Source: Candidatus Vogelbacteria bacterium RIFOXYD1_FULL_44_32 (GTDB lineage Bacteria; Patescibacteriota; Minisyncoccia; Phycocordibacterales; XYD1-FULL-46-19). From it: DNA of 64,000 nt. The translations under genes and the position numbers were made by a program. The notes under the pieces were generated by a model. It saw only the letters and a program-made list of their open reading frames with translations. It did not search any database and was not told the origin of the DNA. Location: contig MHTJ01000002.1 of assembly GCA_001823065.1 (NCBI GenBank), positions 53,532 through 117,531 on the forward strand, read 5' to 3'. This document shows, piece by piece, positions 903-18,840 of the stretch; position 1 is the first letter of the stretch, and each line of letters starts with the position of its first letter.

Positions 903-2225
903 TTATTTTACCCCACTTTTATCGGTTTGTTTTGGAGCAATAGCTAATTTAAGAAATTCCTTAACATCAAAAACTCCTATTGTATTAAACATACATTCTT
1001 TCAGTCCTTCCATCGATACTCCATTCATCTTTGCGTTTACCAACTCAAAGATATCAACAGCTGTCACAAGACAGATATCACAACTTCTAGCTTTTTTTAT
1101 TAGATTATCCTCAAAAGCCTTTGGTCTCTCGTTTGGTTTAGCGTCCTTATAGTGATTAATAATAAATATACCTTGGGTTAAATACGGCTCGGATGTTGGG
1201 GTATCTGGGATTCTTGCGATTAATTGATTTAAATCAGTTCCATTTAGTCCTTCCTTATTTTTTCCTCTAATTTCGATGATGATTCTAGATTTGCCTTCCT
1301 GATAATATCTGTCCTCCTCATTATCAACATCTGGAGACAATAAATTAATACCCAGTAATTTAAAGCAGTCAGATAATGACACTTCCAATGGTTTACCTTT
1401 TAGATACAGTACTTTTTTATACTCACAAATTAATGATAACTCAGATATTAGGAGTCCTTTTTCGACTTCTTTCCTATCTATTTCTACTTGTATATCCAAT
1501 ATCCCTTGCTTTTTACTGGCCTCACCAGGAAGTACAATTTCTTCAATCCATACAGGAGCTGGTTCTTTCTCAACCGAAAGTTCTGTTATTAACAATTCTA
1601 TACTATCTTCTGTATTGCCTAGCACAGGCAAGAAAAAAATTGGGCTGCCTTTAATCTTAGTACTTCTAGTACTCGTATCGCCCACGCTCCAAAGAAATCT
1701 AAATGCAATGGCTTTATTTATTTTATTTACAGCAAGCGCTTTGAAGTTAGGCTCAAACACGAGCGAACTATTTGGTGGGAAATGGTAGCAGTTGTTTATG
1801 CAATCTTTGTATAATCTATCCCACTTTTTAATTCTAGTCAGGAATTTTAAGTAATTTTCAGTCTTTGAGTGGTCAACTATGTTGCCTGGTAATTCTTCAA
1901 ACATCGGAATAATTGGGCACCAGCTATAGTTGAACGTGGTCTTACCCTGTGGTGACGAGTAAATAACTGGGCTCGCACAAAAAGAAAAAACTTGAAGTTT
2001 CCTTTTCTCTTGAGCCTCAATAATCATCTTCCTAATATCATCAAAGTAATTTGGATTTTCTATGGATATCTTTTCCATCAAGTCCCGTGTAAGAGAAGCG
2101 GTATCACATATGACGACATCAAAATCAGGCACATAAACAAAATCCCCCCAAGATACAGCTTTGTCCGCCCTGGGGTGATTTTCTGACCCGATAACTAAAA
2201 TACTTGCCCTGGAGTCCTCATTCAT
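903..2225 (-). CDS. hypothetical protein, 440 aa, no recognisable family; possible C-terminal PD-(D/E)xK-like nuclease motif
   Basis: Long clean ORF. C-terminal D..EGKSRIIIEIRG...LNQL segment is weakly reminiscent of a restriction-endonuclease fold. Preceded by a phased repeat array. Confidence 0.6.
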   Translation of the reverse strand: MNEDSRASILVIGSENHPRADKAVSWGDFVYVPDFDVVICDTASLTRDLMEKISIENPNYFDDIRKMIIEAQEKRKLQVFSFCASPVIYSSPQGKTTFNYSWCPIIPMFEELPGNIVDHSKTENYLKFLTRIKKWDRLYKDCINNCYHFPPNSSLVFEPNFKALAVNKINKAIAFRFLWSVGDTSTRSTKIKGSPIFFLPVLGNTEDSIELLITELSVEKEPAPVWIEEIVLPGEASKKQGILDIQVEIDRKEVEKGLLISELSLICEYKKVLYLKGKPLEVSLSDCFKLLGINLLSPDVDNEEDRYYQEGKSRIIIEIRGKNKEGLNGTDLNQLIARIPDTPTSEPYLTQGIFIINHYKDAKPNERPKAFEDNLIKKARSCDICLVTAVDIFELVNAKMNGVSMEGLKECMFNTIGVFDVKEFLKLAIAPKQTDKSGVK

Positions 2226-2414
2226 TTGATACCATAGTAATACTTGAATCTACAAAAGTACAAGGTGCCGAGTTATTAGGACAGCTGATACTAATTTTTT
2301 CTAAAATCTACTATCTTTCAACAGTAAATAACAGAGATTAACAACATTCAACACTGTTAGACTGGCTATCTAATACAAAATAGGTATGCAAGTTATATAA
2401 GTTGTATCACCCCA

Positions 2415-2462
2415 AATTACCTGTAATTACCTGTTTTTACCTGCCCACGACACGATACCTGC
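2415..2462. repeat. TTACCTG heptamer repeated 4x at ~10-bp phase
   Basis: Copies at 2418-2424, 2428-2434, 2438-2444 and 2456-2462 (aTACCTG). Confidence 0.6.
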
Positions 2463-2510
2463 AGAAATAATTTTTTATATTATGAAAGTTAAGAAAGTTA
2501 CATTCCTTAT

Positions 2511-2620
2511 TTTTAACTAATTTTAACCAGGATTAACCATTTTTAACCGCAATTGACCGAAACTAACCGACTTTTACTAATACTTACCAATTTCTACTAA
2601 CATCTACTAACATCCACCAC
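2511..2620. repeat. Eleven tandem degenerate 10-bp repeats (ttTTAACcaa / cTACTAA core), iteron-like
   Basis: ttttaactaa ttttaaccag gattaaccat ttttaaccgc aattgaccga aactaaccga cttttactaa tacttaccaa tttctactaa catctactaa catccaccac, with strict 10-bp periodicity. Confidence 0.7.
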
Positions 2621-2634
2621 TACTTCTGTACTTT

Positions 2635-2835
2635 TTATGATTTTAGCTGTTTCTCCTCGGTCAGACTCCAAATAAGCGCGACCACCCAACCGATGAATGT
2701 CCAACCAAGAAAAAGATTGAGCGCAAAAATAGCCCAAGCGTTATCTTTTTTATCGTAAAATGCCCCGATTGAGGGAGCAAAATATAGCCCAATGACCGCT
2801 ATCGCTATTAGTAAGGCAATAAATGTAGATTCCAT
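2635..2835 (-). CDS. phage T4 Imm-like superinfection immunity protein (Imm_superinfect family), small membrane protein
   Basis: 66 aa; PSIGAF...NLFLGWTFIGWVVALIWSL matches the Imm_superinfect signature (NxFLGWTGxGWxxALIWA). Confidence 0.55.
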   Translation of the reverse strand: MESTFIALLIAIAVIGLYFAPSIGAFYDKKDNAWAIFALNLFLGWTFIGWVVALIWSLTEEKQLKS

Positions 2836-2870
2836 AATGTATTAGATTAACTTATTAATTAACTTAAAAC

Positions 2871-3731
2871 TTAGTTATAACTATCAATCCTTCCATCATT
2901 ATTTTGGTCATAGAAGCAGGACGGCCCATAATCCATCCAGCAATACTGATACTGAGTTCCATAACCATAATTAGAGGGGTTTACTGCATCAGGTCTTCCT
3001 AAGCGGTACACCAGTATGTCGTAAGGCATACCAATCCAAATCTTTCCAGCCGCCAGAAGCTCGCACTCCTCTTTAGTCCACTCAGGGTGCGCCTTACAAG
3101 CACGACCAGCTGGACTACGGTTATAGGCTTCCAAGTCAGCCTTGGCTTTCGCTGTTTTAGCCGCTATTTCAGCCTTACGCTTACGTTCTGCCGCCTCCTC
3201 TGCCTTTTCCTTGTCTACTCGTTCTTCTGGCGTTAAAGTGCGATTTATGACCAACTCAGCTTTCCCCGTCTTATCCTCCCTGGCTGTCTCCAGAAACACT
3301 ATTGTCCTTTCCTTTTTAACTGGTAGTTCAAATTCAAAGTTACCCTTTTTATCGACCTCCACAGCTTTTTTAAGGTGGCTCAGGCTGGAGTCTTTCGGTC
3401 TAACATAGCCTTTAATTGTCACCAATGTTGAAGTCCCAACAGAAAACTCGTTTTCGGGTTCAGTAATTCTTATGGAAGGAGCTCGATGAGAGTAGGCATA
3501 TGAAGACATCGAGAGCATAAATATTCCAAGAATCACGGCTACCGTCTTCTTTTGTTTGAGGTTTATCCTGTCCTCGTATTTATACAAATAGAAAAGCATA
3601 GCCAGGGGTATTCCTAAATACCAATAGGCAATAACAAACGCTATAAAGAAAATCACCAATAACCCTCCCAGGGAAAACTTAGCCAATTTCACCACCCTAC
3701 CAATTAGAGATTTTATTTTGCTTGATTCCAT
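2871..3731 (-). CDS. membrane protein with Ig-like beta domain, coiled coil and Cys-containing C-terminal domain
   Basis: Two N-terminal TM helices; Lys/Glu/Ala-rich coiled coil; C-terminal GMPYDILVYRLGRPD...YQYCW. Confidence 0.55.
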   Translation of the reverse strand: MESSKIKSLIGRVVKLAKFSLGGLLVIFFIAFVIAYWYLGIPLAMLFYLYKYEDRINLKQKKTVAVILGIFMLSMSSYAYSHRAPSIRITEPENEFSVGTSTLVTIKGYVRPKDSSLSHLKKAVEVDKKGNFEFELPVKKERTIVFLETAREDKTGKAELVINRTLTPEERVDKEKAEEAAERKRKAEIAAKTAKAKADLEAYNRSPAGRACKAHPEWTKEECELLAAGKIWIGMPYDILVYRLGRPDAVNPSNYGYGTQYQYCWMDYGPSCFYDQNNDGRIDSYN

Positions 3732-4475: not shown

Positions 4476-5007
4476 TAGCTAAGCCAAGTTTCTCTAATCT
4501 AATTGCCATAGCAACAACGGAAACATTAAATATTTCTGCACATTCTTTAACATCTCCAACTTTACCCCAAGCGTCCCTGACCAAATCTTCTGGCATTATT
4601 AACGACGCCGCAAAATTATTAGCCTCAATTTCTAGCTTTGTCCCTATGGCGTCATCTAAACGAAAAAGGGTTCTACCTCCATCCAAAGTGCCTTCTCCGT
4701 CTATCATTATTTCTTCACTCTTAATAAATTCGGAATGCAGAAAAAGGTGGCCCAACTCGTGAGCTACAGTAAAATACTGCCTGGTTTTAGGTTTACTGCG
4801 GTTTATATAGATAGAAAAGGAGTCATTGTCTTTGTTATAGCTTATTGCCCCAGATATTTTATCTTCCAAGAGATTAGTGTAAATAATCTCCAAATCCTTT
4901 CTCCCTCTTTCTATATTTTCAAATGGAAAGGGGGAGACATTATCAGGATTATATAATTCCCTTTTTTCGTTAGCTTTTTTTATCGCTAAATTTACGTCTG
5001 CTTCCAT
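4468..5007 (-). CDS. ImmA/IrrE family zinc metallopeptidase (DUF955)
   Basis: HEXXH motif in TVAHELGHLFLH; the length and surrounding residues fit the ImmA/IrrE family. Confidence 0.75.
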   Translation of the reverse strand: MEADVNLAIKKANEKRELYNPDNVSPFPFENIERGRKDLEIIYTNLLEDKISGAISYNKDNDSFSIYINRSKPKTRQYFTVAHELGHLFLHSEFIKSEEIMIDGEGTLDGGRTLFRLDDAIGTKLEIEANNFAASLIMPEDLVRDAWGKVGDVKECAEIFNVSVVAMAIRLEKLGLAND

Positions 5008-5313
5008 AGGTATATATTACCACTTTTTCTAAATAACCGTTCTATTTGGGGTCATCTAAAAAGCCCATTTCGGTAAAATTTGCCTAATTTACTGTCATTT
5101 GTCAAAGAAACCTTGAAACCAAGCTGCGGTATTGTGTAGCCTACGTTAAAATAGCATCCCCTTGGCCAATATCAAAAAAGCTTACTTTTAATTTAGACCC
5201 AGTGGTAGACCAAAAAACTAGAAGCCAAATCAGCAGTCCAATGCTGGCCAGTAAAAACAAAAAAGACCACCGCCAGCGCCAACTATCTTGCATCAAGTAA
5301 TTATACCAAAAAA

Positions 5314-5341
5314 CCCCGCCGGCGGAGCCGGCGGGGTTTTT
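5314..5341. terminator. bidirectional Rho-independent terminator
   Basis: ccccgccggc-gga-gccggcgggg hairpin flanked by A- and T-runs. Confidence 0.7.
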
Positions 5342-5347
5342 AAAAAA

Positions 5348-5587
5348 CTATTCAGCTTCACTATCATCAACAACTTTTTTGGTAGTGGCTTGCTCAGCGA
5401 CTGGCGTTGCTCCGGTGGCTTGCTGTAAGAAAGTCGCAATTTGAGCAATATCGGCTCGGTTTTGCAAAGCCAAAGCCCTAGTCTGATAAACCACATAGGC
5501 ATGCGCTACAAAAATCGCAAACAAAACACCAAGAATAAAAGCGATAATGACACTTTTATTTTTAAAAATTGAAACTGCTACAGCCAT
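5348..5587 (-). CDS. small membrane protein, hypothetical
   Basis: 79 aa; TM helix VIIAFILGVLFAIFVAHAYVV. Confidence 0.45.
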   Translation of the reverse strand: MAVAVSIFKNKSVIIAFILGVLFAIFVAHAYVVYQTRALALQNRADIAQIATFLQQATGATPVAEQATTKKVVDDSEAE

Positions 5588-5629
5588 GAGAATATATTTA
5601 ACTTCTAATGTAACTAATTATATAGACAT

Positions 5630-7141
5630 TTAAAATGGTTTCAATTCATTTCCCGTTTCAACTGTTGATAGCTTTTTTTGTTTAGCTGGCCGAGCAAAAA
5701 TAATTAAGGGCAGATATAAAATTATTATTAACCAGATTGACACTGGCGGTACTAAAACCGAAGCCAGCGGTAGATGACTAAATATTTTTACTACTCCTAG
5801 CACATAAGCCAATAAGAAATAAGTTCCACTGCCTGCTATAAACGCTAAACTAGGAGAAACAAAACCCAGTATCCCCGCGATAAAACCAACCAACATCGTC
5901 AGGGGAATAAATGGCACCACTAAAATATTGGCCGGCAAAGCGACCAAACTTATTTCGCCAATTTTATAAAACAACCAAGGCGTCACCGCCAATTGAGCAG
6001 ACAAGGTGGCCGAAACGATTGCTCGTAAACCATATTGGTCCGTGAGCCAAGTCAACTTAGCTTCGAGCGGGGCCGATAAATAGATCAAGCCCAAAGTGGC
6101 CAAAAATGATAATTGAAAGCCGGTATCATTGGCTAAAATAAGAGGATTGTAGAGCACCATTAAAACCCCAGCAATAAACAGCCCTACAGTAGCACTATAT
6201 ATTCGCCCGGTGGCTCGCGCCCAGACGGCAAGTAAGGCCATCAGAGAGGCCCGCACCACGGTCGGTCCCCCGCCAACCATTAGCGCAAATAATATTATAC
6301 TGACCGCTCCTGCCAGTAAGGTTAAATTAAAACTTAAAAAATAGGCCAGAAAAATCATTAGGGCCTCGGCCACAATCGTCATATTGTACCCCGACAAAAC
6401 CACAATATGGACCAACCCCGCCCGCCGAAAATCAGTCGTAATTTCCTCTCCTAACCCCCGCCTCTCTCCCACCAAAAGCCCCGCCAGTAAAGAAGAATGT
6501 GGTTCCGGTAAGGCTAGATTCACCTGCTCAATAAATTTATTTTTGAGGGCCAATAACCAAGTTAAAATATAATTACCCTGCCCTTGGTCAATAATTTCAA
6601 TCTTGGCCAAAGACATTTGATAATGAATATCTCTGACTTTTAAATAGGAAATATAATCAAACTCCCGCCCGCTATCTGTAATAAAGTTTGTTGGTAAAGC
6701 CACCAGACCAGTAATTTTCAAAACATCACCATAATTAATCTTTTTATATGGTGAGGTCGAAACCAAAATCTTTTCCTTTGAGTCTACCAGACGCACTACC
6801 AGACGAGTGGTTGTATCCCGTTCATCGGGACTTTCAACCACCACTCCCATCATTTCCTGTTTCTGCCCCACCTTATCAACTAAAACCGAATTAAAAACTA
6901 TAGATGATTGTAACCGCCATACCCCCAAACCAAAACCGAGGCCGAGGCAGGCCAAATAAATATAGGGCAAAAATTTACGCCCCCGTAAAAAATATAGGGC
7001 TAAAAAAATTGGGGTTAAAATTATTAGGGCCAATAAATCATTGACCTCAAATTCTAGCGCCCCCGCACCCAAAACACCGGCGAGAAAACCTATAGCTAAA
7101 TAAAATAAAACCTGACGAAAAAGTGATAAATTTACTCCCAT
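5630..7141 (-). CDS. comEC: ComEC/Rec2 competence channel protein (short form, no metallo-beta-lactamase domain)
   Basis: GLVHIVVLSGYNMTIVAEA competence-domain motif; polytopic membrane protein of 503 aa. Confidence 0.8.
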   Translation of the reverse strand: MGVNLSLFRQVLFYLAIGFLAGVLGAGALEFEVNDLLALIILTPIFLALYFLRGRKFLPYIYLACLGLGFGLGVWRLQSSIVFNSVLVDKVGQKQEMMGVVVESPDERDTTTRLVVRLVDSKEKILVSTSPYKKINYGDVLKITGLVALPTNFITDSGREFDYISYLKVRDIHYQMSLAKIEIIDQGQGNYILTWLLALKNKFIEQVNLALPEPHSSLLAGLLVGERRGLGEEITTDFRRAGLVHIVVLSGYNMTIVAEALMIFLAYFLSFNLTLLAGAVSIILFALMVGGGPTVVRASLMALLAVWARATGRIYSATVGLFIAGVLMVLYNPLILANDTGFQLSFLATLGLIYLSAPLEAKLTWLTDQYGLRAIVSATLSAQLAVTPWLFYKIGEISLVALPANILVVPFIPLTMLVGFIAGILGFVSPSLAFIAGSGTYFLLAYVLGVVKIFSHLPLASVLVPPVSIWLIIILYLPLIIFARPAKQKKLSTVETGNELKPF

Positions 7142-7277: not shown

Positions 7278-7700
7278 TCACTTCGCATCCATCGCTTCAT
7301 TGGCGAGCGCATCCGCCTCTTTGTTTTGTTCGCGCCTAATCTCGGTAATTTTAAAATTAGGAAAATCAGTTTTCAAAATTTCTTTAATTTGGGTGTGATA
7401 CACGCGCAATCTATCTTCTTTCACTTTATATTTGCCTGCTAGTTGTCTAGCAATCAGCTCGGAATCAACACGTAGTTCTACTTCTGCCGATTTTATTTGT
7501 TCGGCGCTAAAATTTTTCTTGATTAAATCTAAGCCCAAAAGCACCGCTTGATATTCGGCCTCATTATTGGTGGTTTCGCCTATATATTTTGAAGCTATCG
7601 CTACCACTTTTTTATTTTCATCATAAATTACCGCTCCAACCCCCGCCGGTCCTGGATTTCCCCGCGCGCCTCCATCGGTGTTTAAAATTATTTTTAGCAT
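7278..7700 (-). CDS. rnhA: ribonuclease HI
   Basis: ILNTDGGARGNPGPAGVGAVI...EAEYQAVLLGL...EADALAN, RNase H fold with a DEDD motif. Start set at MLKIILNTDGG. Confidence 0.8.
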   Translation of the reverse strand: MLKIILNTDGGARGNPGPAGVGAVIYDENKKVVAIASKYIGETTNNEAEYQAVLLGLDLIKKNFSAEQIKSAEVELRVDSELIARQLAGKYKVKEDRLRVYHTQIKEILKTDFPNFKITEIRREQNKEADALANEAMDAK

Positions 7701-7927
7701 TAAAAAATTATAACACAAAAAGGGCCCGCTAGACGCAGGCCCCGAAACTTGAATCAGTGCTTGTGCAAGGACCCAAGGCCACCCAACGAATGTTTTGCTT
7801 CCCTGTTATCTCCCAATAAAAAATTCAGAAGAAGGGAAGTAAAAATTAGAAGCCCGACGAGCACCATCGTTGCTAAATCTTGAAGTAATCTCACAGTCAG
7901 TCCTCCTTTCTCTTTTTACAGCATAAC

Positions 7928-9670
7928 TTATGCTTGCCTCAAGTCAACTACGCGCAAGCGCAACTCCGGCCGGTTTTTAAAGGTTGATTTTTCAATATTT
8001 GCGAGCATGTCCACCCGCCGGCCAGGGGCCAGATTTACCCCCGGCCAAATATGACCCGAATCATAAGATAAATCACAACCAGAATCACAAGCAAAAAAGG
8101 CAATGGCCGAGATTTTATTGTCTTCATTATCTTTAAAAACAATTTCCACGTGTCCGCCGGTTTTACCAAAAGCTTTAGCGGAAACAATGGCTAAATTTTC
8201 GAGCCAAAACACTGGCTTGGGAAAATCTAGCCCATACGGCCCAATTTTTTCAATCTCTTTTTGCATTGCCCAGCCAATATCAGCCAGGCTAATTTTCAGA
8301 TCCGCCTCCTCCTCTTCCACCACCACCGTTTTGGTCATTTTTTTGTAGGCCTCTAATAGTTTTTTCTCTAACTTCACCAAATTCTCGGCTGGCAAAGAAA
8401 AACCACCCGCAAAAGCGTGACCGCCAAAATCACGGAAAAATTTTGGTTTGCCCGCCAAAGTCATTAGTTCAACCACATTTACTTTGCCGTCTGACCGGCA
8501 TGAACCTTTTATTTCGCCATTACCATTTTTGGCCCAAACAAAAACTGTCCGCCCATACTTTTCACTAATCCGCGCCGCCGCTAGTCCCAGCACCCCCAAC
8601 CCCCAATCCTCGTTGCCGACAACCAGCACCGCCGGCAAATTCTTGGTTTGATAATGTTTTTCGACAGTATCTAAAATTTCCGTCACTTGGCTACGTCTTT
8701 CTTTATTGCGCCCCTCCAAATCACAAGCAATTTGACGCGCCTCCTCTTCTTTAGTGGTCATCAGTAAATTAAAAGCCTCCAAGGCATGCGACATCCGACC
8801 CGCCGAATTGATACGCGGGCCAATCATAAAACCAATATCCTCTTCATTTATATATTCTCGTTTCAATTTTAAAACCCGGAAAAGCTCGAGGAGCCCCAGT
8901 CGGTGAGTCATTCGCAACACCATCAGGCCAAACTTGGTCATCGTTTTATTTTCGCCCGTCATTGGTACCATATCCGCTACTGTCGCAATCGCCACTAGTT
9001 CTAAGAGCCACTTTTCCCAACCAATTGGTATTGTCTCCAAATTACCGCGTGCTATTAGCGCCTGCACCAACTTAAAAGCCACTCCCGTCCCCGCCAAATG
9101 TTTGTAGGGATAGGCACAATCCGTCCGCTTGGGGTCAATCACCGCCACTGCTTTGGGTAATTTGGCTGGGGGCAAGTGGTGGTCGGTTACTACCACGTCT
9201 ATCCCCAACTCATTGGCTCGCTTTACTTCAACCAAATTAGAAATTCCACAATCAACTGTAATAATTAGTTGTACGCCATCAGCTTTAAATTTTTCTACCG
9301 CTACTACCGATAAGCCGTATTGTTCATTATGGCGATGGGGAATGTAAACACTAAAATTTTCGTAATTAATTTTACGAAAAAACTCGGCCAGCACCGCCGA
9401 AGCCGGCACCCCATCGGCATCATAATCGCCAAAGATTAAAATCTTTTCCTCATTTTCAATTGCCTGCAATATTCTAGCCACCCCTTTTTCCATATCCTTC
9501 AGTAAAAATGGATCGTGTAAATGTCTCACATATTCCGGCAAAAAAATCTCTTCGATTTCTTCTCTGGTTTTCACCCCACGATTTTTTAAAATAGCCGTGG
9601 CCACATCTTTTAGTCCAGCAAAAACATCACCTTTAGTTTTGCTAACCTTTATTTTCCACGCTTTTTGCAT
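7928..9670 (-). CDS. recJ: single-stranded-DNA-specific exonuclease RecJ
   Basis: DHH and DHHA1 motifs (ILIFGDYDADGV, VVVTDHH); 580 aa. Confidence 0.9.
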   Translation of the reverse strand: MQKAWKIKVSKTKGDVFAGLKDVATAILKNRGVKTREEIEEIFLPEYVRHLHDPFLLKDMEKGVARILQAIENEEKILIFGDYDADGVPASAVLAEFFRKINYENFSVYIPHRHNEQYGLSVVAVEKFKADGVQLIITVDCGISNLVEVKRANELGIDVVVTDHHLPPAKLPKAVAVIDPKRTDCAYPYKHLAGTGVAFKLVQALIARGNLETIPIGWEKWLLELVAIATVADMVPMTGENKTMTKFGLMVLRMTHRLGLLELFRVLKLKREYINEEDIGFMIGPRINSAGRMSHALEAFNLLMTTKEEEARQIACDLEGRNKERRSQVTEILDTVEKHYQTKNLPAVLVVGNEDWGLGVLGLAAARISEKYGRTVFVWAKNGNGEIKGSCRSDGKVNVVELMTLAGKPKFFRDFGGHAFAGGFSLPAENLVKLEKKLLEAYKKMTKTVVVEEEEADLKISLADIGWAMQKEIEKIGPYGLDFPKPVFWLENLAIVSAKAFGKTGGHVEIVFKDNEDNKISAIAFFACDSGCDLSYDSGHIWPGVNLAPGRRVDMLANIEKSTFKNRPELRLRVVDLRQA

Positions 9671-9792: not shown

Positions 9793-10152
9793 ATGGCCAA
9801 TTGCATATTTTGTAAAATTGTCGCTGGCGAAATACCCGCCCACAAGGTCTATGAGGACGACCATTTCTTGGCTTTTTTGGATATCAACCCCGTTTCTGCC
9901 GGCCATGTCCAGGTTATACCCAAAACTCACTACCGCTGGGTGTGGGATGTACCCAATGTCGGTGAGTATTTTGAAATAGTAAGGAAAATAGCCCTCGCTC
10001 AGAAAAAAGCTTTCGCCACCGACTTTGTCTTATCTAAAATTGTCGGCGAAGATGTCCCCCACGCTCATATTTGGGTTTACCTCGACCCCGCCCTCTCTGG
10101 TGACAAAAAAGATTTTGAAGGGAATAGAGATAAAATAATCAAAGAAATCTAA
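9793..10152 (+). CDS. HIT family (histidine triad) hydrolase
   Basis: CIFCKI N-terminus; HxHxHxx motif PHAHIWV. Confidence 0.85.
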   Translation: MANCIFCKIVAGEIPAHKVYEDDHFLAFLDINPVSAGHVQVIPKTHYRWVWDVPNVGEYFEIVRKIALAQKKAFATDFVLSKIVGEDVPHAHIWVYLDPALSGDKKDFEGNRDKIIKEI

Positions 10153-10194
10153 AAACCTGCCCGAGCTAATGCTCGGGCAGGTTTTTAGATTAAT

Positions 10195-11325
10195 CTATTT
10201 TTCCAATGCCTTAATCCCCGGCAGTGTTCCCTTAGCAATAAACTCGAGCATCGCTCCACCCGACATAGAAATATAATTTATTCCACTTGAAAGGTGGTGA
10301 CGCTCCAGCGCCGCCACCGTGTCTCCCCCGCCCACCATTGAATACCCTGTCGCCTCGACCAAGGCCACCGCTATCTCCTCGGTCCCCTTACTAAAACCTT
10401 TTTCAAAATTACCCACGGGACCATTCCACAACACAAACTTGGCTTTAATTATTTTTTCCTTAAGTAAATCAATAGTGGCTGGCCCTGCATCCTGAATATT
10501 ATCTTGTTTACGCACCCCCTCTGGCTTTTTCACGACTCGTCCGTCTTTAGTTTTAACCACCACATCGATCGGTAACTGAATTTTTTTATCTTTTAAAACT
10601 TCCACCAAACCCTTGACCCCATCACCTACCAGCGACTTACCTATTTCATAACCCAGTTTGTGCCAGAGTGGATGAGCGAGCGCCCCACCCACAAACACAA
10701 AATCGGCTCGGGGCAACAGCTTCTTAATCACCGGCAACTTGGTTTCAAATTTGGCGCCACCTAAAATTAGCACAAAGGGGTGCCCGGCTTTATTTACCTT
10801 ACTCAATTCAGTATATTCCTTAGCAAAAGCCAGCCCCGCAAAACTAGGCAAATATTTTGGCACACCGACAATAGAAGCGTGAGCGCGATGGGAAGCCGAA
10901 AAAGCATCATTTATATAAATATCAGCGAGGCCAGCCAAGCGCTTAGCAAAAACCTTGTCATTTTTCTCTTCTTCTTCGTGGCGACGAATATTTTCCAACA
11001 ACATTACCGAGCCATTGGGCATCGCCTTAAAACGCGCTTCGTCAAAAACCAGTTTAGAAAAACCAATTTTAAGATGAGGCTCGAGAGCCCGCGCCACTGG
11101 GGCCAAACTTTCTGTTCCTGCTCGTCCCAAATGAGCCACCACTAGCACTTTGGCCCCTCGCTCGGCCAAATATTTTAAAGTCGGTAAAGCCGATAGAAGT
11201 CGGCTGTCATTGAGAACTTTACCTTTGGCGATCGGAACATTAAAATCGGTGCGCACCAACACAAAATTACCCTTTAAATCTTTGGTTTTTAGATCTGTGA
11301 TGGTTTTAAAAGGCAACTTTGACAT
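10195..11325 (-). CDS. pgk: phosphoglycerate kinase
   Basis: RTDFNVP and GGGDT motifs; 376 aa. Confidence 0.95.
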   Translation of the reverse strand: MSKLPFKTITDLKTKDLKGNFVLVRTDFNVPIAKGKVLNDSRLLSALPTLKYLAERGAKVLVVAHLGRAGTESLAPVARALEPHLKIGFSKLVFDEARFKAMPNGSVMLLENIRRHEEEEKNDKVFAKRLAGLADIYINDAFSASHRAHASIVGVPKYLPSFAGLAFAKEYTELSKVNKAGHPFVLILGGAKFETKLPVIKKLLPRADFVFVGGALAHPLWHKLGYEIGKSLVGDGVKGLVEVLKDKKIQLPIDVVVKTKDGRVVKKPEGVRKQDNIQDAGPATIDLLKEKIIKAKFVLWNGPVGNFEKGFSKGTEEIAVALVEATGYSMVGGGDTVAALERHHLSSGINYISMSGGAMLEFIAKGTLPGIKALEK

Positions 11326-11332
11326 AATCTGA

Positions 11333-12097
11333 TTATTTTATTTTATCAGCGATTTGTAAAATCTGTTTAAATTGGTCTGGCACCAGCGACTCTCGCCCCA
11401 CCAACAAACCATCGGCTCGGCCATCTTTCAAAAATCCTTCAGCATTTTTTACATTGACCGACCCACCATACAAAACCGGTAGGGCGAGCGCCAGCTCATT
11501 GCCAGCCAAACCGGCAAATACCTTGCGGATAAACAAGGCGTTGTGTAAAAAATTATCGGGCGTATCAGCCCCATGCGCCTCGGTGCCAATCGCCCAGATT
11601 GGCTCGTAAGCGATCATAATTTCACTATAATAACTTTTTTTCAAATCACCAAGACAAGCGCCAATTTGACCACGTAAAAAACTCAAATAATCACCGTGTG
11701 CATCACGTTTTTCCTCGCCAATGCAAATGATTGGTTTCAGGCCGGCTTTGACCGCCAGTTGGACTTTTTCCCGTACCACTTTGTCGGTTTCTCCCGCCCG
11801 CCTACGCTCCGAGTGACCAACAATCAGATAATCGGCGCCAATATTTTTAATCATTTTGGCGGAAATGGCGCCAGTCTCGGCTTCGTTCACCCCAGCACAG
11901 GCGTCTTGCCCACCCCAAAATATTTTTTTGGTTGGCCGCGGTGGTATCAGCAACGACAAATACAAAGCCGGCGGACAAATAATAGTCCGCGTTTTGGTCA
12001 GCTTTGAAGCAGTTTTTTTTAGAGCTAGAGCTAGAAGTTTAGCTTCCCGCGGTGAAGCCGGATTCATCTTCCAATTGGCCACAATAAATTTTCCCAT
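11333..12097 (-). CDS. tpiA: triosephosphate isomerase
   Basis: ANWKMN, VGHSERR and YEPIWAIGT motifs. Confidence 0.95.
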   Translation of the reverse strand: MGKFIVANWKMNPASPREAKLLALALKKTASKLTKTRTIICPPALYLSLLIPPRPTKKIFWGGQDACAGVNEAETGAISAKMIKNIGADYLIVGHSERRRAGETDKVVREKVQLAVKAGLKPIICIGEEKRDAHGDYLSFLRGQIGACLGDLKKSYYSEIMIAYEPIWAIGTEAHGADTPDNFLHNALFIRKVFAGLAGNELALALPVLYGGSVNVKNAEGFLKDGRADGLLVGRESLVPDQFKQILQIADKIK

Positions 12098-12151: not shown

Positions 12152-13792
12152 TTAGAGTCGAGAGTGGGCGTGGCGCCGGATAAGAGCAATCGCTTCGTTT
12201 AAATCTATTTTACCAAGAGTAGCCAGCACAAAAATATCTTCATTTAGCTTGAGTGCCCCTTGTTCTCGGCTAAAATTCACAATTTCCTCGGGTTTTTTAC
12301 CATCTTTAATCATTTTTTCGATCGGCAAGGTGACTACTAGCGCTTCCGTGGCATAGATTTTAGTTCGATCAGGTAAAGAAATATCACCGTTTTGTTTTTT
12401 TACTTTAAAATTAGCTGTGGCAATATCAAAAGACACATCAACTAGGCCAGCTAAAACTAAATTATCCTTCATTTTTTCAAAATTGAGATAGCCCTTGAGG
12501 TCTTTCCACTCATTGGGCTGAAGTTGGCCCGCCACAGCCCGACTACCTAGGGTGGAAACAGGTTCAAGGCGCATAAAAATTTTAGTGACTGCTGACAAAA
12601 TATAGCGGTCGGGTAAAAGCTGATCCGTTTGACTCACTAAATCAGCTAAATTTTTTGCAGATAAACCCACAAACACCGCTATACCCCGCCCCGCCGCTCC
12701 CGCCAGTAGGGCCAAAGTTTGCGGTGAGTCAATTTCTTCCACCAAAATAGCATCAAAATCGTGCGGTAAAAGCCGACGCAAAATATCGGCGACGGGTTTA
12801 CCGGCTGTTTCTACCTGCTCCACGTGGAAAAGATAACGCTCTAGTTTTTTTTCAATTGAGAGCACTGGGTGGCCAGTGCGGGCCAACCTTTCAGCCAAGG
12901 CATAAAACAATGGCTTATTGGTCTCAACCATATCTCCCGAAATTACCGCCAACCCTCCTCCAGCGGTGATATTTTCTAGGACCTCTAGGTTTTCCCCCCA
13001 TAAACCAAGCTTGGCCAACTCATTATCACTTTGCCTAGAAAATATGGCGCGTTTGGACAAATCAGTCGTAAATTGTCCGGTGGGTGTAAAGTCATATTTT
13101 TTAAATAAATCAGGAAAACCGGCGGATTCGACTAAGCGCTGGCCAATATGCGGATTGGTAGCCATAGCATCATAAGTTTTTTGCCCAATCCGATAGCGAA
13201 CCAAAGTTTCACTCGGACTGACTTCAATCAAGATCCGGCGCGCCTGAGCTGAGCTCGCATCACGAAAAACCAAGTTAGCAACTCGCCCCAAATCGCGCTC
13301 GCTTTTTTCGTGAGCTAAACTGGCCCCAAGTTCGCGTAAATCACGCCCATAGCGCCCACCGAGCTCGCGTTGGTAAGACAATAAAAGTCGGCGGACCAGC
13401 GCTTCTGGGGCCAACCGCGGTAAAATATGCAACTCATCAGCTAAAATATTTTTCGCTTCTAAAATATCCTCCAAACGCAACCCAATCACTTCCAAGCCAC
13501 TAGCCGTTTCGCGTAGAGCAATCACATTGTGGGCCCGCGCCACTGGTTCGGGGATTTTGGCTAACACTTCATAGGGAATCTGGTCATCAAAACTACTCAT
13601 AAATGGCACCCCCGAGGCCCGCGCCTCGAGGCGGCGCAAATCATCGCCAGAAATTATTCCCTGCACCAAAATTCGTTCGGATAAAGATAGCCCCTTGTCT
13701 TTGGCTTCTTGCTCGAAAACATCCAGCTCGGCGCGAGTCGCCACGCGCGCCGACACTAACAGTTCTTTTAAAATCGAGGAGTCAATAAACAT
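12152..13792 (-). CDS. type II secretion / type IV pilus ATPase (GspE/PilB) homolog with two T2SSE_N domains and degenerate nucleotide-binding motifs (probable pseudo-ATPase)
   Basis: N-terminal GSPII_E_N-like repeats. The ATPase-core alignment is conserved, but Walker A reads GDMVETNKP instead of GPTGSGKT, Walker B reads ILVEEIDS, and the His-box is lost (VFVGLSAKN). Confidence 0.7.
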   Translation of the reverse strand: MFIDSSILKELLVSARVATRAELDVFEQEAKDKGLSLSERILVQGIISGDDLRRLEARASGVPFMSSFDDQIPYEVLAKIPEPVARAHNVIALRETASGLEVIGLRLEDILEAKNILADELHILPRLAPEALVRRLLLSYQRELGGRYGRDLRELGASLAHEKSERDLGRVANLVFRDASSAQARRILIEVSPSETLVRYRIGQKTYDAMATNPHIGQRLVESAGFPDLFKKYDFTPTGQFTTDLSKRAIFSRQSDNELAKLGLWGENLEVLENITAGGGLAVISGDMVETNKPLFYALAERLARTGHPVLSIEKKLERYLFHVEQVETAGKPVADILRRLLPHDFDAILVEEIDSPQTLALLAGAAGRGIAVFVGLSAKNLADLVSQTDQLLPDRYILSAVTKIFMRLEPVSTLGSRAVAGQLQPNEWKDLKGYLNFEKMKDNLVLAGLVDVSFDIATANFKVKKQNGDISLPDRTKIYATEALVVTLPIEKMIKDGKKPEEIVNFSREQGALKLNEDIFVLATLGKIDLNEAIALIRRHAHSRL

Positions 13793-13820
13793 TAGACATA
13801 ATTATACCAAAATTAAAACC

Positions 13821-13850
13821 AAAAATCCCCGCTCATCGCGGGGATTTTTG
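13821..13850. terminator. Rho-independent terminator
   Basis: aaaaatccccgc-tcat-cgcggggattttt. Confidence 0.65.
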
Positions 13851-13868
13851 GTGATAAATTAATTTATT

Positions 13869-16800
13869 TTACCAACCACAATTGTAAGTCGGACGACTAA
13901 CATTATTCACTTCTAGGCTTCCATTCCCCGCAGTGTTACCAATTGCCCCTCCAATAAGAGCACTTACCACATCTCCCCCAACCCTTCCTCCAATTACTAA
14001 ACCAGCACCGCCGCCGAGGGCACTCTTACTCCACACTACTCCAACATTCGAATAGGAGAATCTTTTACCATCACCTTGTGCCTCTTTAAAGATACAGCCC
14101 ACTTGATAACTCTCAATCGCCCCGGTTTGAGCCGCCACGTATTGCTGACAATCTCTAATGGTCCAAGACGAGGGAACTGGTATATTGCTTTCCACTACTC
14201 GAGGCAAAGAATTAAAAGCCTCATCAAGACTAGCTCTCATGTTGGCCCCTATATCGGGTAATATGTACCTATCCATCAGAGAACCAGCTGGTAATATGCC
14301 TCCAGCTTGAAATACTGTTACACAAGCATTGCCAAGACAGATTCTTTTATCGTTTGGTGGCACATTGTTTGCTGGAATATAAACGCGAGAATTATTTCGC
14401 GCTTCTGCATACCTGTCTAACATCGAAAGAAGGAAGGAACTAATTTTAAGCTTGAAATTATAGAAGGCTCCGCCCACCCCAATAGCCGTACACATTTTTT
14501 GCCCCTCGCCAGATGTCGCTGTATCCTTGTACCCAATTTTGCCGTCATTGTCGGCAACTAAAACCCGCGTACTAACATTATCAGCCGCCAAGCTTCTTAG
14601 CCTTACTTTTCCGTCTACATCTAGCTTTGTATTAGAATCAATATCTGCGGTACCAAGAGAAATAGAGCCACCACGGTCAATTCTTACATTATTAGCCGTG
14701 ATTCCTCCTTCAACATCAAGCTTATTACTTGGATCATTAGTCCCAATGCCGACCTTGCCCTCACGCGAGATTCTCATGGCATCCACAAGATGAGCACCAT
14801 CGGTAACAGTAAATTGAAGACCGCCATAATTAACAGCGCCAGTTGATGCTCGCTCGATTACACCACTAATTTGGGCCAGAGTTGCATTATTCGCTGCATT
14901 TCCATTTTTTGCGGCAAAACGTAAGCCAACGCCACTATTAGCGGAATTGGTGTTGTTTGCAATGATGGCAACAGGAAAATTACTCGTTCCCGTAAGGTCG
15001 GAGACTGTTCTGGCAGTTAAGCCCACAGTATAATTGGTGGTGCCATTATCAATATCTAACTTTGTTCCTGGTACATTGGTGCCAATACCCACTTTTCCAG
15101 TGTTAGTATTGTATATGTTATTACCACTCGTTGCCCATTGACCACCAACCGAAGAAGTATCAAAGCAGATTCCAGTTGTGCTACAAATTCGGTTCACTGT
15201 AAGCTTTCCAGCAATATTTACATCGTCAAACAATCTTATCAATCTTGGTTGCATTGGCACACCCTCAGCTACCACCACTCCACCATATACATCTAGAGAT
15301 TGAGGGCTAGTATTTTTGTATCTAATATAACCCACATCCTTGCCTTCTAGATTGAATGCACCAAATTTTAGTCGCCCTAATTCGGCAGCTGAAAAACTAG
15401 TGCCATCAACACCGATTGTTCCCGTTACATGAAGATTAGTACTAGGGCTATTGGTCCCAATACCCACCTTGCCAGTGTTAAAATCCACCACCAAAGGAGT
15501 TGCAAGGGTATTATTGCCGTTTGGATAAGTCACACTCGGGGAACCGACTTTACGAAACGTTAGAAGTGACCCATCCATCTGAATTCTAGCGTTTTTATCT
15601 GTCTCACCAGTTTGATTTAACAAAATACTTGGAGCGGCATTTTCACCAATAATCTGACCACTCGAAAATAGAGTCCCAAACGCAGCCAGGGCTCCATCAA
15701 TACGAGTGGCACCATTTACCTGAAGCTTACTCGTAGGAGCCGGATTACCAATACCTACGTTTCCATTGGAAGCAATCATTAACATTTCTCCGTCTGCTCC
15801 AAACTTATACCGATTAGACAAAAAGGTGAGTGGCGCACTAGAACCACCATCTTTAGTAGCAGCAATTATAGCGTCGGTGCCGTCGGCACCACCATTGCTA
15901 AAGAGAATATTAACAATACCTGTTTTAACGTGGAATTTTGTCTGGGGGTTGGCCGTACCAACACCAACATTGCCAGTCAGATTTTTATTGTAAATATTAT
16001 TGACATTGGCGGTCGATGAAGCCCATTTATCACCGCCGTTATTATTGGTAACCTCGGTACACAAATCCTCATCAGGACCAGAACATTTGTAAATATTAGA
16101 AGCATAAAGATTGGCCCAACGGCGAGTCGGACTACCGAGGTCATACCTATTATCGAGATGGGGTCCAACACTACCGTAAACCTGTAATTTAAACAGTGTT
16201 GGATCAACCACGGTTCCAACACCCACATTGCCAGAATTTAGATTGATTGATAATGGAGTAGCGGCAATATTATTGCTAGAACTTACTCGATTAAAACTAA
16301 GAAGGTTATTTTGAACTTGAATCCGAGCGTTAACACTAGAATTATCAGTGTCAAATAAAACCAAACTTGGTGAATGATTTCGACTCATAAGTAGACCTGT
16401 GGCCGAGATAATACCGTCTACTGTTAATTTATAGTCTGGGGTAGTTGTGCCAATACCTACTCGCCGAGTCAAAACTGATGGAGAGATCGCCGTTCCAGTG
16501 GAATTCAATGTCCACAAGCCATCCCCGCCACCGGTAAATGGACTACAGACGACAGCCCCCTCGGCACTGGTGGTACAAATATTATATTTAAAAGCGTTGA
16601 TAGTGCCACCAACAAACAAGTTGTCAAGCAAGTGCACCATCCTGTTGCCTACCGCGTTCCCACCACCGAAAATTCGCACCGAGATTCCTGGTTTACTGTC
16701 GGTGGAAACTACACCGTTATTGAAATAGAAAATTCGGCCCGCTTTTTCTTCTTTTATAGTAGTCGGAAACTCTTTACCCAATTCCAAAATCGAAGCTTGG

Positions 16801-16988
16801 CGCAAATTAAACCCGCCAGCTTTGGTCTGAGTGGTCGAGCCCACATTTATTGGGGTCGGAGTATTACAACCAGTCGGACCACAAGCTGGGTTTGCCCACT
16901 CCGCATACGCTACCCCCGCCACCAAAAAGACAAACGCAACTGAAACTAAGATAAGTGAGGCCTGCTTAAATGATGACGGGTAGTTCAT
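13869..16988 (-). CDS. large secreted surface protein (1039 aa) with seven tail-fibre-like G(N/K)VGIGTxxPxxKLxVxG repeats
   Basis: Signal peptide or TM helix (LILVSVAFVFLVAGVAYA); repeated motifs NVGVGTANPQTKFHV, GKVGIGTNSPSTNLHVTG, GKVGIGTNVPGTKLDIDNG, GKVGIGTNDPSNKLDVEGG and others; Gly-rich C-terminus. Confidence 0.8.
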   Translation of the reverse strand: MNYPSSFKQASLILVSVAFVFLVAGVAYAEWANPACGPTGCNTPTPINVGSTTQTKAGGFNLRQASILELGKEFPTTIKEEKAGRIFYFNNGVVSTDSKPGISVRIFGGGNAVGNRMVHLLDNLFVGGTINAFKYNICTTSAEGAVVCSPFTGGGDGLWTLNSTGTAISPSVLTRRVGIGTTTPDYKLTVDGIISATGLLMSRNHSPSLVLFDTDNSSVNARIQVQNNLLSFNRVSSSNNIAATPLSINLNSGNVGVGTVVDPTLFKLQVYGSVGPHLDNRYDLGSPTRRWANLYASNIYKCSGPDEDLCTEVTNNNGGDKWASSTANVNNIYNKNLTGNVGVGTANPQTKFHVKTGIVNILFSNGGADGTDAIIAATKDGGSSAPLTFLSNRYKFGADGEMLMIASNGNVGIGNPAPTSKLQVNGATRIDGALAAFGTLFSSGQIIGENAAPSILLNQTGETDKNARIQMDGSLLTFRKVGSPSVTYPNGNNTLATPLVVDFNTGKVGIGTNSPSTNLHVTGTIGVDGTSFSAAELGRLKFGAFNLEGKDVGYIRYKNTSPQSLDVYGGVVVAEGVPMQPRLIRLFDDVNIAGKLTVNRICSTTGICFDTSSVGGQWATSGNNIYNTNTGKVGIGTNVPGTKLDIDNGTTNYTVGLTARTVSDLTGTSNFPVAIIANNTNSANSGVGLRFAAKNGNAANNATLAQISGVIERASTGAVNYGGLQFTVTDGAHLVDAMRISREGKVGIGTNDPSNKLDVEGGITANNVRIDRGGSISLGTADIDSNTKLDVDGKVRLRSLAADNVSTRVLVADNDGKIGYKDTATSGEGQKMCTAIGVGGAFYNFKLKISSFLLSMLDRYAEARNNSRVYIPANNVPPNDKRICLGNACVTVFQAGGILPAGSLMDRYILPDIGANMRASLDEAFNSLPRVVESNIPVPSSWTIRDCQQYVAAQTGAIESYQVGCIFKEAQGDGKRFSYSNVGVVWSKSALGGGAGLVIGGRVGGDVVSALIGGAIGNTAGNGSLEVNNVSRPTYNCGW

Positions 16989-17030: not shown

Positions 17031-17369
17031 CTAATTATTTTGCAACTGTTTAATAATCTGCACTTTCTCCGCTTCCGTCGGCCCACTATCATCGGCTTGA
17101 ATTGACTGCAAAATCTGGACTTTTTCGGCTTCGCTCAATTTGGGCGCCTGGTCGGCTTCGGCCTGCAACTGGCGCATGATTTCGGCCCGGTCACTGGCTG
17201 GCAAATCCTTCGGCTGGCCTAATTTGGAAAAAATCAGGACGGCCAAAAAAATCACAGCCAAAAACACTAAAATTATTACCAAGGTCACCGCCCAAATTTT
17301 ACGCTCGGGAGTAGGAGTGGAACCAGGACTTAAAGGTGAGCCCGGAGTCGGCGTTAAATTATTTTCCAT
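17031..17369 (-). CDS. membrane-anchored hypothetical protein with an internal SEAEKVQI(L/I)QxIQ duplication
   Basis: Pro/Thr-rich N-terminus, one TM helix, duplicated AEKVQI motif. Confidence 0.5.
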   Translation of the reverse strand: MENNLTPTPGSPLSPGSTPTPERKIWAVTLVIILVFLAVIFLAVLIFSKLGQPKDLPASDRAEIMRQLQAEADQAPKLSEAEKVQILQSIQADDSGPTEAEKVQIIKQLQNN

Positions 17370-17610: not shown

Positions 17611-18840
17611 ATGATTGACCTTAAAGCTTTAAATGCCGCCCTCGGCGAGCTCGAAGAAGAACGCAATATCCCCCGGGCTAAAATTATGGAGGCTATTTCC
17701 GATGCACTCGTGGCGGCTTACAAAAAAGACTACGGTAAAAAAGGCCAAATTATCAAGGCCAATTTTGACCTCAATACCGGCACGGCTGAATTTTATCAAG
17801 TAAAAATAGCCGTCGATGAAACCACTGTGCGCCCGGCGGTCGATGATGAAGAAGAAGTGGTAGTGGTGACACCCCCAGCTGTCGCAGGCGAGGATACGCC
17901 CGAGGAGCGCCCCCGTTTTAATGAAGAACACCATATTTGGCTCGCCGACGCTAAAAAGATTAAGCGTGATGTTGTCCTCGGTGAAGAATTGGTTTTTCCC
18001 CTCGAAGCCAAAGACGACTATGGTCGTATTGCCGCCCAAACCGCTAAACAAGTTATTATTCAGCGTATTCGCGAAGCCGAAAAGGTGTCTATTTTAGATG
18101 AATACGAAGGTAAGGAAGGGGAAATTATTAATGGCAAAGTGCAAAAGATTGAACGGGGTAATGTGTTTGTTGACCTCGGTCGCACCACGGCTATTTTACC
18201 CTTTGAAGAACAAATCCAAGGTGAGTTTTACCGCCAGGGCGAGCGGATCCGCGCCTACCTCTATTTAGTGGAAGACACTCCTCGTGGTATTGCCCTAAAA
18301 CTATCTCGCTCCCATCCTAAATTTGTCGAGGGTCTATTTTCTCTCGAAGCGCCCGAGGTCGCCTCGGGCGCCGTGGAAATCAAGGCCGTCGCCCGCGAAG
18401 CTGGCTCACGGACTAAAATCGCTGTCACTTCACACGACCACTCCATCGACCCGGTCGGCTCCATGGTTGGTCAGCGGGGTTCACGAGTGAATACCGTCAT
18501 CGCCGAGCTCGGTGGTGAAAAGCTCGATATTATTGAATGGTCAGACAACCCAGCCACTTTTATTGCCAATGCCCTCTCACCAGCCAAGGTCAACAATGTC
18601 ACCCCTAATGATGAGACCCACCAAGCGCTAGTCGATGTTCCCGCCGACCAATTTTCTCTCGCAGTGGGTAAGGGTGGCCAAAATGTCCGTCTCGCCGCTA
18701 AACTGACTAGCTGGAAAATAGATATCACGACACCAGAAAACTTGGCCCTACCGGAAGAAGATAAAACCGAAATTTCACCAGTTATAACAGATGAAGCGAA
18801 GGAGGAAAAAATTGACACCCCCGCCACTCCTGAAGCTTAA
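17611..18840 (+). CDS. nusA: transcription termination/antitermination factor NusA
   Basis: S1 domain plus two KH domains (GSRTKIAVTSHDHSIDPVGSMVGQRGSRV...). Confidence 0.95.
   Translation: MIDLKALNAALGELEEERNIPRAKIMEAISDALVAAYKKDYGKKGQIIKANFDLNTGTAEFYQVKIAVDETTVRPAVDDEEEVVVVTPPAVAGEDTPEERPRFNEEHHIWLADAKKIKRDVVLGEELVFPLEAKDDYGRIAAQTAKQVIIQRIREAEKVSILDEYEGKEGEIINGKVQKIERGNVFVDLGRTTAILPFEEQIQGEFYRQGERIRAYLYLVEDTPRGIALKLSRSHPKFVEGLFSLEAPEVASGAVEIKAVAREAGSRTKIAVTSHDHSIDPVGSMVGQRGSRVNTVIAELGGEKLDIIEWSDNPATFIANALSPAKVNNVTPNDETHQALVDVPADQFSLAVGKGGQNVRLAAKLTSWKIDITTPENLALPEEDKTEISPVITDEAKEEKIDTPATPEA

Follow-up and report, generated by a model that had tools for sequence, protein, structure and literature searches.

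Can a PilB-family motor protein be retained by a lineage once its ATP site has been lost? Motors of this family are regarded as obligate ATPases with the sole job of driving filament assembly through PilC, and the question is raised here by a gene of 'Candidatus Vogelbacteria' bacterium RIFOXYD1_FULL_44_32, a member of the Patescibacteria. We analysed a stretch of 64,000 nucleotides from this genome (contig MHTJ01000002.1, positions 53,532 to 117,531), which is called the window below. An original prediction, made from the letters alone, had placed the product of one gene in the PilB/GspE family and suggested a probable pseudo-ATPase with degenerate Walker A, Walker B and His-box motifs. Our analysis indicates that the product very likely descends from PilB, the extension ATPase of type IV pili, and has been retained as a full-length, well-folded but non-catalytic protein. 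The gene and its N-terminal domains are laid out as follows.

12152..13792, minus strand: gene of the probable PilB-derived pseudo-ATPase, an intact open reading frame of 546 codons with an ATG start
13343..13792, minus strand: N1 domain (residues 1-150), a four-helix part and an alpha/beta MshEN/T2SSE_N part, by Pfam and alignment
13019..13246, minus strand: N2 domain, shortened (residues ~183-258), by alignment and model

The 546-amino-acid product is recorded at NCBI as A2571_00415, "hypothetical protein" (exact match in the protein collection). Its homology to the PilB/GspE family extends over the full length, including the ATPase core, as had been predicted. In a phmmer search of a 5.8-billion-protein database a match to a canonical Patescibacteria PilB had an E-value of 5e-29, and a profile built from the protein and its close relatives (the clade) matched Geobacter metallireducens PilB in the PDB with an E-value of 1.5e-18, spanning the N-terminal and ATPase regions. 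The AlphaFold2 model has a mean predicted local distance difference test score (pLDDT) of 85.9, and its top Foldseek matches are GspE (4pht), PilF (5oiu) and PilB (5tsh), with E-values of 3e-21 to 5e-20. The fold of PilT-like ATPases, consisting of N1, N2 and a C-terminal domain (CTD), is thus present. The family models score low: the Pfam T2SSE ATPase domain reaches 21 bits against a gathering score of 24.9, and the NCBIfam models for ComGA (the best match, 31.8 bits, cut-off 300), GspE (29.2 bits, cut-off 630.25) and PilB (20.8 bits, cut-off 675.65) all stay below their thresholds.

The N-terminus had been predicted to carry two T2SSE_N domains, and it carries only one. Pfam reports MshEN/T2SSE_N (PF05157) as a single stretch at residues 61-143 (24 bits, cut-off 23.1), and residues 1-150 match one-to-one the single N1 domain of canonical PilB. 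In the model, the shortened N2 domain has two strands after its helix, compared with three in the canonical model.

The case for a loss of catalysis is carried by the ATP-site motifs, which were called from an alignment with canonical Patescibacteria PilBs in which each site was counted.

12911..12937, minus strand: former Walker A site GDMVETNKP (residues 286-294) in place of GPTGSGKT, by alignment
13055..13084, minus strand: arginine-finger site with a 16-residue deletion and a substitution, PTGQFT^TDLS against PQDGRFKMEADGERVSFRVSVLPT, by alignment
12836..12859, minus strand: Asp box remnant SIEKKLER (residues 312-319), magnesium-binding glutamate E314 kept, Asp changed to Lys
12725..12760, minus strand: Walker B remnant DFDAILVEEIDS (residues 345-356), Asp and catalytic-Glu position kept
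12650..12691, minus strand: former His box GRGIAVFVGLSAKN (residues 368-381), both histidines lost

The strings quoted in the original prediction for the three degenerate motifs are present and align as claimed. In GDMVETNK the second glycine of Walker A has become threonine, the lysine asparagine, and the threonine lysine. The motif is not simply shifted and intact, since neither G-x4-GK[ST] nor GK[ST] was found anywhere in the protein by a whole-sequence motif scan, and the P-loop stretch is variable. Within the clade no part of the core is less conserved, and the letters of the loop differ freely from member to member (GDMVETN, GENSENN, SSDLSYN, GSNIETI, APELASL, SASSTNL). In the predicted structure of the nucleotide pocket, the loop between the strand at 280-285 and the helix starting at V289 comprises 3 residues, compared with 6 (GPTGSG) in a canonical Vogelbacteria PilB modelled in the same way. 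In Walker B, DAILVEEIDS (347-356) lines up with DIIMVGEIRD; D347 and E353 are kept, the conserved glycine is replaced by glutamate and the next arginine by aspartate. In the His box, GIAVFVGLSAKN (370-381) lines up with GHLVLSTLHTNS of canonical PilB. E314 of the Asp box is invariant across 67 degenerate relatives.

The losses go further than originally described. The arginine of PQDGRF, the first arginine finger, is replaced by glutamine, and the second arginine finger falls within the 16-residue deletion in the N2 domain; the two correspond to R271 and R286 of G. metallireducens PilB (PMC5424180). In PilT-like ATPases the motifs Walker A and Walker B, the catalytic glutamate, both arginine fingers and the Asp-box glutamate are completely conserved, and mutating these motifs disrupts or abolishes ATPase activity (McCallum et al. 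2017, PMC5424180). By every motif criterion the protein would be catalytically dead, which bears out the predicted pseudo-ATPase, and most likely ATP binding and hydrolysis in the manner of the PilB family have been lost.

The surroundings of the gene bear on its origin. The following neighbours were assigned by Pfam and synteny.

17611..18840, plus strand: nusA, the divergent left border of a conserved slot
11333-12097, minus strand: tpiA, directly downstream of the PilB-like gene
10195-11325, minus strand: pgk, downstream of tpiA
9793-10152, plus strand: HIT
7928-9670, minus strand: recJ
7278-7718, minus strand: RNase H (rnhA)
5630-7141, minus strand: comEC, which had been placed in the window before and is found there

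Reading from nusA, the window has genes for a 112- and a 1039-amino-acid protein, the PilB-like gene, tpiA, pgk, HIT, recJ, RNase H and comEC, and the same order is seen in two ~50%-identical relatives (L001 and L004). We surveyed 80 loci, using one genome per GTDB species and a 10-sequence alignment as query. The species studied here has no genome in that set, where the best match is 70% identical. The close clade accounts for three of the loci, at 70, 67 and 49% identity, each with a degenerate PilB and no pilC. A fully canonical PilB (GPTGSGKT, GEIRD, GHx6-7H, QDGR) is encoded in the remaining 77, and pilC directly follows canonical pilB in 70 of the 74 loci with a long enough contig. Most canonical pilB-pilC pairs sit in the same slot, from nusA to tpiA-pgk-HIT-recJ, and the conserved Paceibacteria block runs from nusA through pilB-pilC-pilins to tpiA-pgk-HIT-recJ-rnhA-comEC.

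The closest canonical-bearing relative found is a Candidatus Vogelbacteria metagenome-assembled genome (GCA_021414225.1, locus L095), which is 70% identical to the window in NusA, 74% in PPase, 70% in HIT and 56% in TpiA. There the order is nusA, genes for proteins of 116 and 1437 amino acids, a canonical PilB (P0266), PilC, three N_methyl pilins, a 577-amino-acid protein, tpiA and pgk. The two loci share both flanks, and on the upstream side these include two lineage-specific genes, for a small membrane protein and a giant repeat protein. The window locus lacks pilC, the pilins and the 577-amino-acid gene; 54 nt are left there between the PilB-like gene and tpiA. No T2SSF (PilC/GspF) was detected in the locus or the whole window by Pfam and motif scans, and no other type IV pilus gene among the window open reading frames scanned (Pfam on the 41 larger ones, six-frame motif scans over all 64 kb). 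Because the window locus is the L095 arrangement minus pilC, the pilins and the 577-amino-acid gene, the PilB-like gene descends from the motor of the locus itself. It is a descendant of the resident pilB, not an extra paralog, and these partner genes were cleanly removed from this locus in the query lineage. The notion of a paralog beside a working machine is therefore not upheld: synteny puts the gene in the locus's own PilB position, with the adjacent pilC and pilins deleted.

The protein is only 24% identical to the L095 PilB, compared with 63-81% among the canonical PilBs of the group, and therefore a burst of change took place. Within the clade the picture is one of constraint. Compared with L012, L013, L014 and L001, the proportion of nonsynonymous differences (pN) is 0.19-0.38 and that of synonymous differences (pS) 0.70-0.78, which is saturated; the resulting ratio of nonsynonymous to synonymous substitution rates (dN/dS) is at most about 0.1-0.24, an upper-bound estimate owing to that saturation, and lies in the range that these comparisons give for TpiA, RecJ and ComEC. 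None of the seven clade members seen has a broken frame; six are full length (541-548 amino acids) at up to 50% sequence difference and the seventh (P0011) is a 413-amino-acid fragment. The gene is under purifying selection within the clade since its divergence, as strong as on tpiA, recJ and comEC, and hence it is not a decaying pseudogene.

Constraint is unevenly distributed. The N1 domain is best conserved, with 64-76% identity within the clade and 34-41% to canonical PilB; the ATPase core has 45-54% and 17-25%, respectively, and the window around the former P-loop ranks lowest. A pattern of this kind marks a pseudo-enzyme retained in a non-catalytic role centred on N1. The protein has the features by which pseudoenzymes are recognised: it is clearly homologous to an enzyme family, has lost catalytic residues and evolves under purifying selection.

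The N1 domain of GspE and PilB docks the motor onto membrane partners of the GspL/PilM type, and 4pht is such a complex. MshEN domains can bind cyclic-di-GMP through a tandem 24-residue motif, RLGxx(L/V/I)(L/V/I)xxG(L/V/I)(L/V/I)xxxxLxxxLxxQ. Inspection of residues 5-60 by eye showed that the hydrophobic core positions fit, with the Arg, the Gly and the terminal LxxQ absent from both repeats; canonical Paceibacteria PilBs fit the motif no better by the same inspection. A tetracysteine zinc site is regarded as typical of the PilB/GspE clade. It is uninformative here, because the canonical Paceibacteria PilBs P0007, P0008, P0010, P0160 and P0266 also lack it, having 0-2 cysteines, so that the site is missing from the group as a whole.

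Degenerate PilB-like proteins are also found outside the clade. Among 1.8 billion representative proteins searched, 696 matched at E < 1e-3, and of the 123 full-length proteins in the best 150 only 6 passed a simple test for all canonical motifs. The excess of degenerate clusters is in part a consequence of fast evolution, as canonical PilBs collapse into few 50% clusters. The 117 degenerate proteins have retained the first His-box histidine in 8 cases and the second in 4, the catalytic glutamate in 39, the Walker A lysine in 72, the first arginine finger in 70 and the second in 59, the Asp-box glutamate in 113 and the Walker-B Asp in 111. The query clade resembles them in the lost His box and usually also in the changed Walker-B Gly-Glu; it differs in having lost more than most, given that the Walker A lysine survives in 72 of 117 and the arginine fingers in about half. 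Among the groups sampled, only the query clade has the N2 deletion and, upstream, the giant protein.

Six distant degenerate members were sampled for context, and none has an adjacent pilC. Four of the six (P0012, P0016, P0021 and P0031) stand alone between nusA and tpiA-pgk-HIT-recJ-rnhA-comEC without pilC or pilins, as the query does in its tpiA-pgk slot; P0014 lies on a short contig without pilC; and P0026 (locus L097), half-degenerate and likewise an orphan, has rearranged surroundings in which two N_methyl pilin-like genes occur within 10 kb. These pilin-like genes (175-1002 and 4863-5723) combine N_methyl with Laminin_G_3 or toxin receptor-binding domains, showing that some degenerate-PilB genomes still encode type IV pilin-like proteins. 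An adjacent pilC is thus missing from all six sampled degenerate loci and the query clade, compared with 4 of 74 canonical loci, and therefore loss of the catalytic motifs goes with loss of the adjacent pilC. An intermediate form is P0009 (552 amino acids, on a 5.4-kb JGI contig), which keeps Walker A (SPAGGGKT) and the first arginine finger; its Walker B Gly-Glu is changed to Asp-Gln and both His-box histidines are lost. The order of decay suggested by this protein is His box and Walker B first and Walker A last.

Five host markers place the query clade beside the canonical-bearing L095 and not beside other degenerate-bearing lineages. In a tree of TpiA and Pgk, a crude one from two genes, the degenerate-bearing lineages appear in at least three places. 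Judged from these markers, independent origins of the degenerate PilBs are suggested.

Upstream of the PilB-like gene are two genes and two signals.

17031-17369, minus strand: 112-amino-acid single-pass membrane protein, first of the upstream pair
13869-16988, minus strand: 1039-amino-acid secreted repeat protein, second of the pair
13818..13852, minus strand: terminator-like hairpin of 15 pairs, 8 GC, with a T-rich tail, ending the 1039-amino-acid gene (pattern)
13801..13809, minus strand: extended -10-like element TGgTATAAT, ~8 nt before the ATG (sequence pattern only)

The element TGgTATAAT is a putative promoter of the gene's own, which would give a near-leaderless transcript. Pattern scans found no terminator separating tpiA-pgk from the PilB-like gene. 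One that is bidirectional lies after pgk: a hairpin at 10146-10191, with a perfect 20-bp stem between the convergent HIT and pgk genes, has a terminator score on both strands. A -10-like TATACT box lies within the 54-nt spacer before tpiA. The upstream terminator, the -10-like element and the lack of a terminator before tpiA suggest that the gene is probably expressed from its own promoter in a common transcript with tpiA-pgk, and not with the giant gene.

The 112-amino-acid protein has an N-terminus rich in Pro, Ser and Thr, one transmembrane helix and repeated 'EAEKVQI..Q' units. The 116-amino-acid gene in L095 is similar in layout and position, with marginal sequence similarity (E 0.011). 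The 1039-amino-acid protein has no Pfam match and contains six copies of the repeat G[NK]VG[IV]GT..P..KL.V.G; the 1437-amino-acid gene of L095 is homologous to it, N-terminus included. This protein may act at the surface as a fibre or adhesin, with a historical link to the pilus operon. It was also considered as a functional partner of the PilB-like protein, an idea weakened by several observations: a strong terminator separates the genes, an insertion sequence (IS) transposase of the IS200 type lies between them in L001, the upstream pair is absent from the other degenerate lineages, and it is older than the decay of PilB, since it precedes canonical pilB in L095.

What, then, might such a protein do? 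On the reading preferred here it would act by binding and not by catalysis. The N1 domain would probably still hold a partner, and the N2-CTD body would serve as a scaffold or platform. Candidate partners would be leftover pilus proteins encoded elsewhere in the genome, the ComEC DNA-uptake apparatus or something unrelated, and its gene would have a promoter of its own and would probably be cotranscribed with tpiA-pgk. That orphan, motif-less PilBs without an adjacent pilC occur in other Paceibacteria lineages as well argues for a selectable function of PilB beyond pilus assembly.

Several points weigh against this reading of a non-catalytic, selected protein with repeated parallels. E314, D347 and E353 are kept, and K293, one position past the canonical Walker lysine, is invariant; from these residues, ATP binding in an unconventional pocket would be possible. 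The promoter and the operon were called from sequence patterns only, and the saturation of synonymous sites limits the measure of selection to upper bounds. A neighbour-joining tree of PilB groups 116 of the 117 degenerate sequences, which could mean one ancient origin. This grouping is probably long-branch attraction, and we distrust it because the branches are very long and the five host markers put the query clade beside a canonical-bearing genome.

Other explanations have to be set against the preferred one. An inactive PilB could serve an intact type IV or competence pilus, with genes elsewhere in the genome, as a scaffold or regulator that might dock on PilM or PilC or enter mixed rings with an active PilB or PilT; we regard this as a serious though unlikely option. 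It would account for N1, the docking domain, being the best conserved part, with 34-55% identity to canonical PilB, and for the keeping of comEC and recJ in the locus. The half-degenerate orphan P0026 with its two nearby pilin-like genes is in its favour, as are reports that type IV pili are widespread in bacteria of the candidate phyla radiation (PMC6744442). A Sungbacteria contig (L040) carries two canonical pilB genes, at 1851-3686 and 9905-11569, 6 kb apart and without pilC by the criteria used, so that second pilB loci do exist in Paceibacteria. Against this stands the synteny, by which the gene holds the locus's own PilB position with pilC and the pilins deleted, together with the lack of any pilus gene among the open reading frames scanned in the 64-kb window. 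Moreover, without both arginine fingers, a mixed ring would be poisoned rather than regulated. A weaker argument comes from the best 120 of 8000 relatives of the Vogelbacteria-type PilB of L038: these include several canonical PilBs from 'Candidatus Vogelbacteria', and none is attributable to this genome.

A broader proposal takes up the possibility of a function beyond pilus assembly. In several separate Paceibacteria lineages PilB might have become ATP-independent and outlived the pilus through a second job, such as an organiser or gate of ComEC import or a membrane hub for signalling or docking. We put this forward only tentatively.

More doubtful is a hub for DNA uptake independent of any pilus, in which the PilB remnant would organise or regulate the ComEC and RecJ proteins of import and processing. 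The proposal draws on an analogy: non-motor roles have been reported for ComGA, the PilB-family protein of Bacillus subtilis. ComGA is also the best NCBIfam match of the protein, albeit far below the cut-off, and in all lineages examined, whether pilC is there or not, comEC, recJ and RNase H remain linked with the gene. However, the housekeeping genes tpiA, pgk and nusA share this linkage, which may be purely historical, and comEC lies 5 kb away, outside the predicted transcript.

The remaining explanations have little to commend them. That the gene is a functionless relic, a pilB pseudogene by chance undisrupted, is very improbable. The lost motifs, the deleted partner genes and the very high divergence from canonical PilB would all be expected of a relic, but pN far below the saturated pS contradicts it, as do the intact frames in six full-length clade members at up to 50% difference, the confident structure prediction, the domain-patterned conservation and the persistence of equally old orphan copies in other lineages. 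An active NTPase with shifted or unconventional motifs, in which for instance K293 would be the Walker lysine after a one-residue insertion, finds support in the invariant K293 and in the retained E314, D347 and E353 and is nonetheless hard to credit: a glycine-rich loop is lacking, the lysine is followed by proline instead of Ser/Thr, the loop is free to vary within the clade and is collapsed to 3 residues in the model, and both arginine fingers and both histidines are gone, changes of a kind that disrupts ATPase activity (PMC5424180). Finally, a frame kept only as promoter, leader or translational coupling for the essential tpiA-pgk, for which one may cite the missing terminator before tpiA and a 4-nt overlap of tpiA with the degenerate pilB of one of the four distant relatives that stand alone in the slot (L010), can almost be set aside, as it would neither constrain 546 codons at the amino-acid level nor preserve a foldable three-domain protein, and the TATACT box in the spacer may give tpiA a promoter of its own.

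We return to the non-catalytic descendant of PilB and its place among known systems. With the PilB/GspE ATPases of known structure (G. metallireducens PilB 5tsg/5tsh, T. thermophilus PilF 5oiu and Vibrio GspE 4pht) it shares the architecture and fold of N1, N2 and RecA-like CTD, the Asp-box glutamate, the Asp of Walker B, the position of the catalytic Glu and many residues of N1. It differs from them in the missing Walker A, arginine fingers, Walker-B glycine and His-box histidines, in the N2 deletion, in the absence of adjacent PilC and pilins and in its T2SSE and NCBIfam scores below cut-off. The archaellum protein FlaH sets a precedent for a non-motor accessory role: RecA/KaiC-like and a partner of the PilB-like motor FlaI, it binds ATP without hydrolysing it. 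Both are RecA-fold proteins taken to be non-hydrolysing and related to type IV filament machines; FlaH, however, is KaiC-like and not PilB-derived, keeps its Walker A and is encoded inside an intact archaellum operon.

A function of PilB besides powering assembly has been described in Myxococcus xanthus, where PilB regulates exopolysaccharide (PMC5544727). That protein has intact motifs, unlike the one studied here, and its role is described as nucleotide-dependent, whereas nucleotide binding has most likely been lost in the Vogelbacteria protein, as judged from its motifs. Conserved Walker boxes were reported in a paper on the Saccharibacteria pilus. In the searchable literature we found neither an account of PilB/GspE proteins that lack the motifs or are pseudo-ATPases nor a link between Vogelbacteria and pili.

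Some further observations were made in the loci compared and in the window. In L096 (9790-20266) a DNA methyltransferase and an IS1595 transposase lie between canonical pilB and pilC, with an AbiEii gene ahead of tpiA. The transposase between the giant gene and the degenerate pilB in L001 (9177-9854) is an IS200-type Y1 transposase. The pilus locus attracts insertions, and these may be a route by which the operon is broken up. Elsewhere in the window, two adjacent orphan proteins of 442 and 432 amino acids (41838-44497, plus strand) are extremely rich in Glu and Lys and coiled-coil-like, the second with a transmembrane segment; this pair accounts for a spike in AT skew of 0.377 at 42-44 kb. 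A 786-amino-acid protein (53402-55762, minus strand) has weak matches to TrwB/VirD4/TraG coupling proteins and HerA-like DUF87, and may be a remnant or a divergent form of an ATPase for conjugation or DNA translocation.

Proteins of this kind are named in databases either 'hypothetical' or 'ATPase, T2SS/T4P/T4SS family', and the latter label would wrongly score the genome as pilus-competent. The gene offers a natural case of separation of function, in which the binding that remains to the protein would define a non-motor activity of PilB. In Patescibacteria a host-dependent lifestyle is believed to centre on pili and DNA uptake, and some lineages appear to have dismantled this pilus operon, keeping comEC, recJ and a PilB shell. 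If PilB has indeed outlived the pilus through a second job, canonical PilB may carry the same function, hidden behind its role as a motor.

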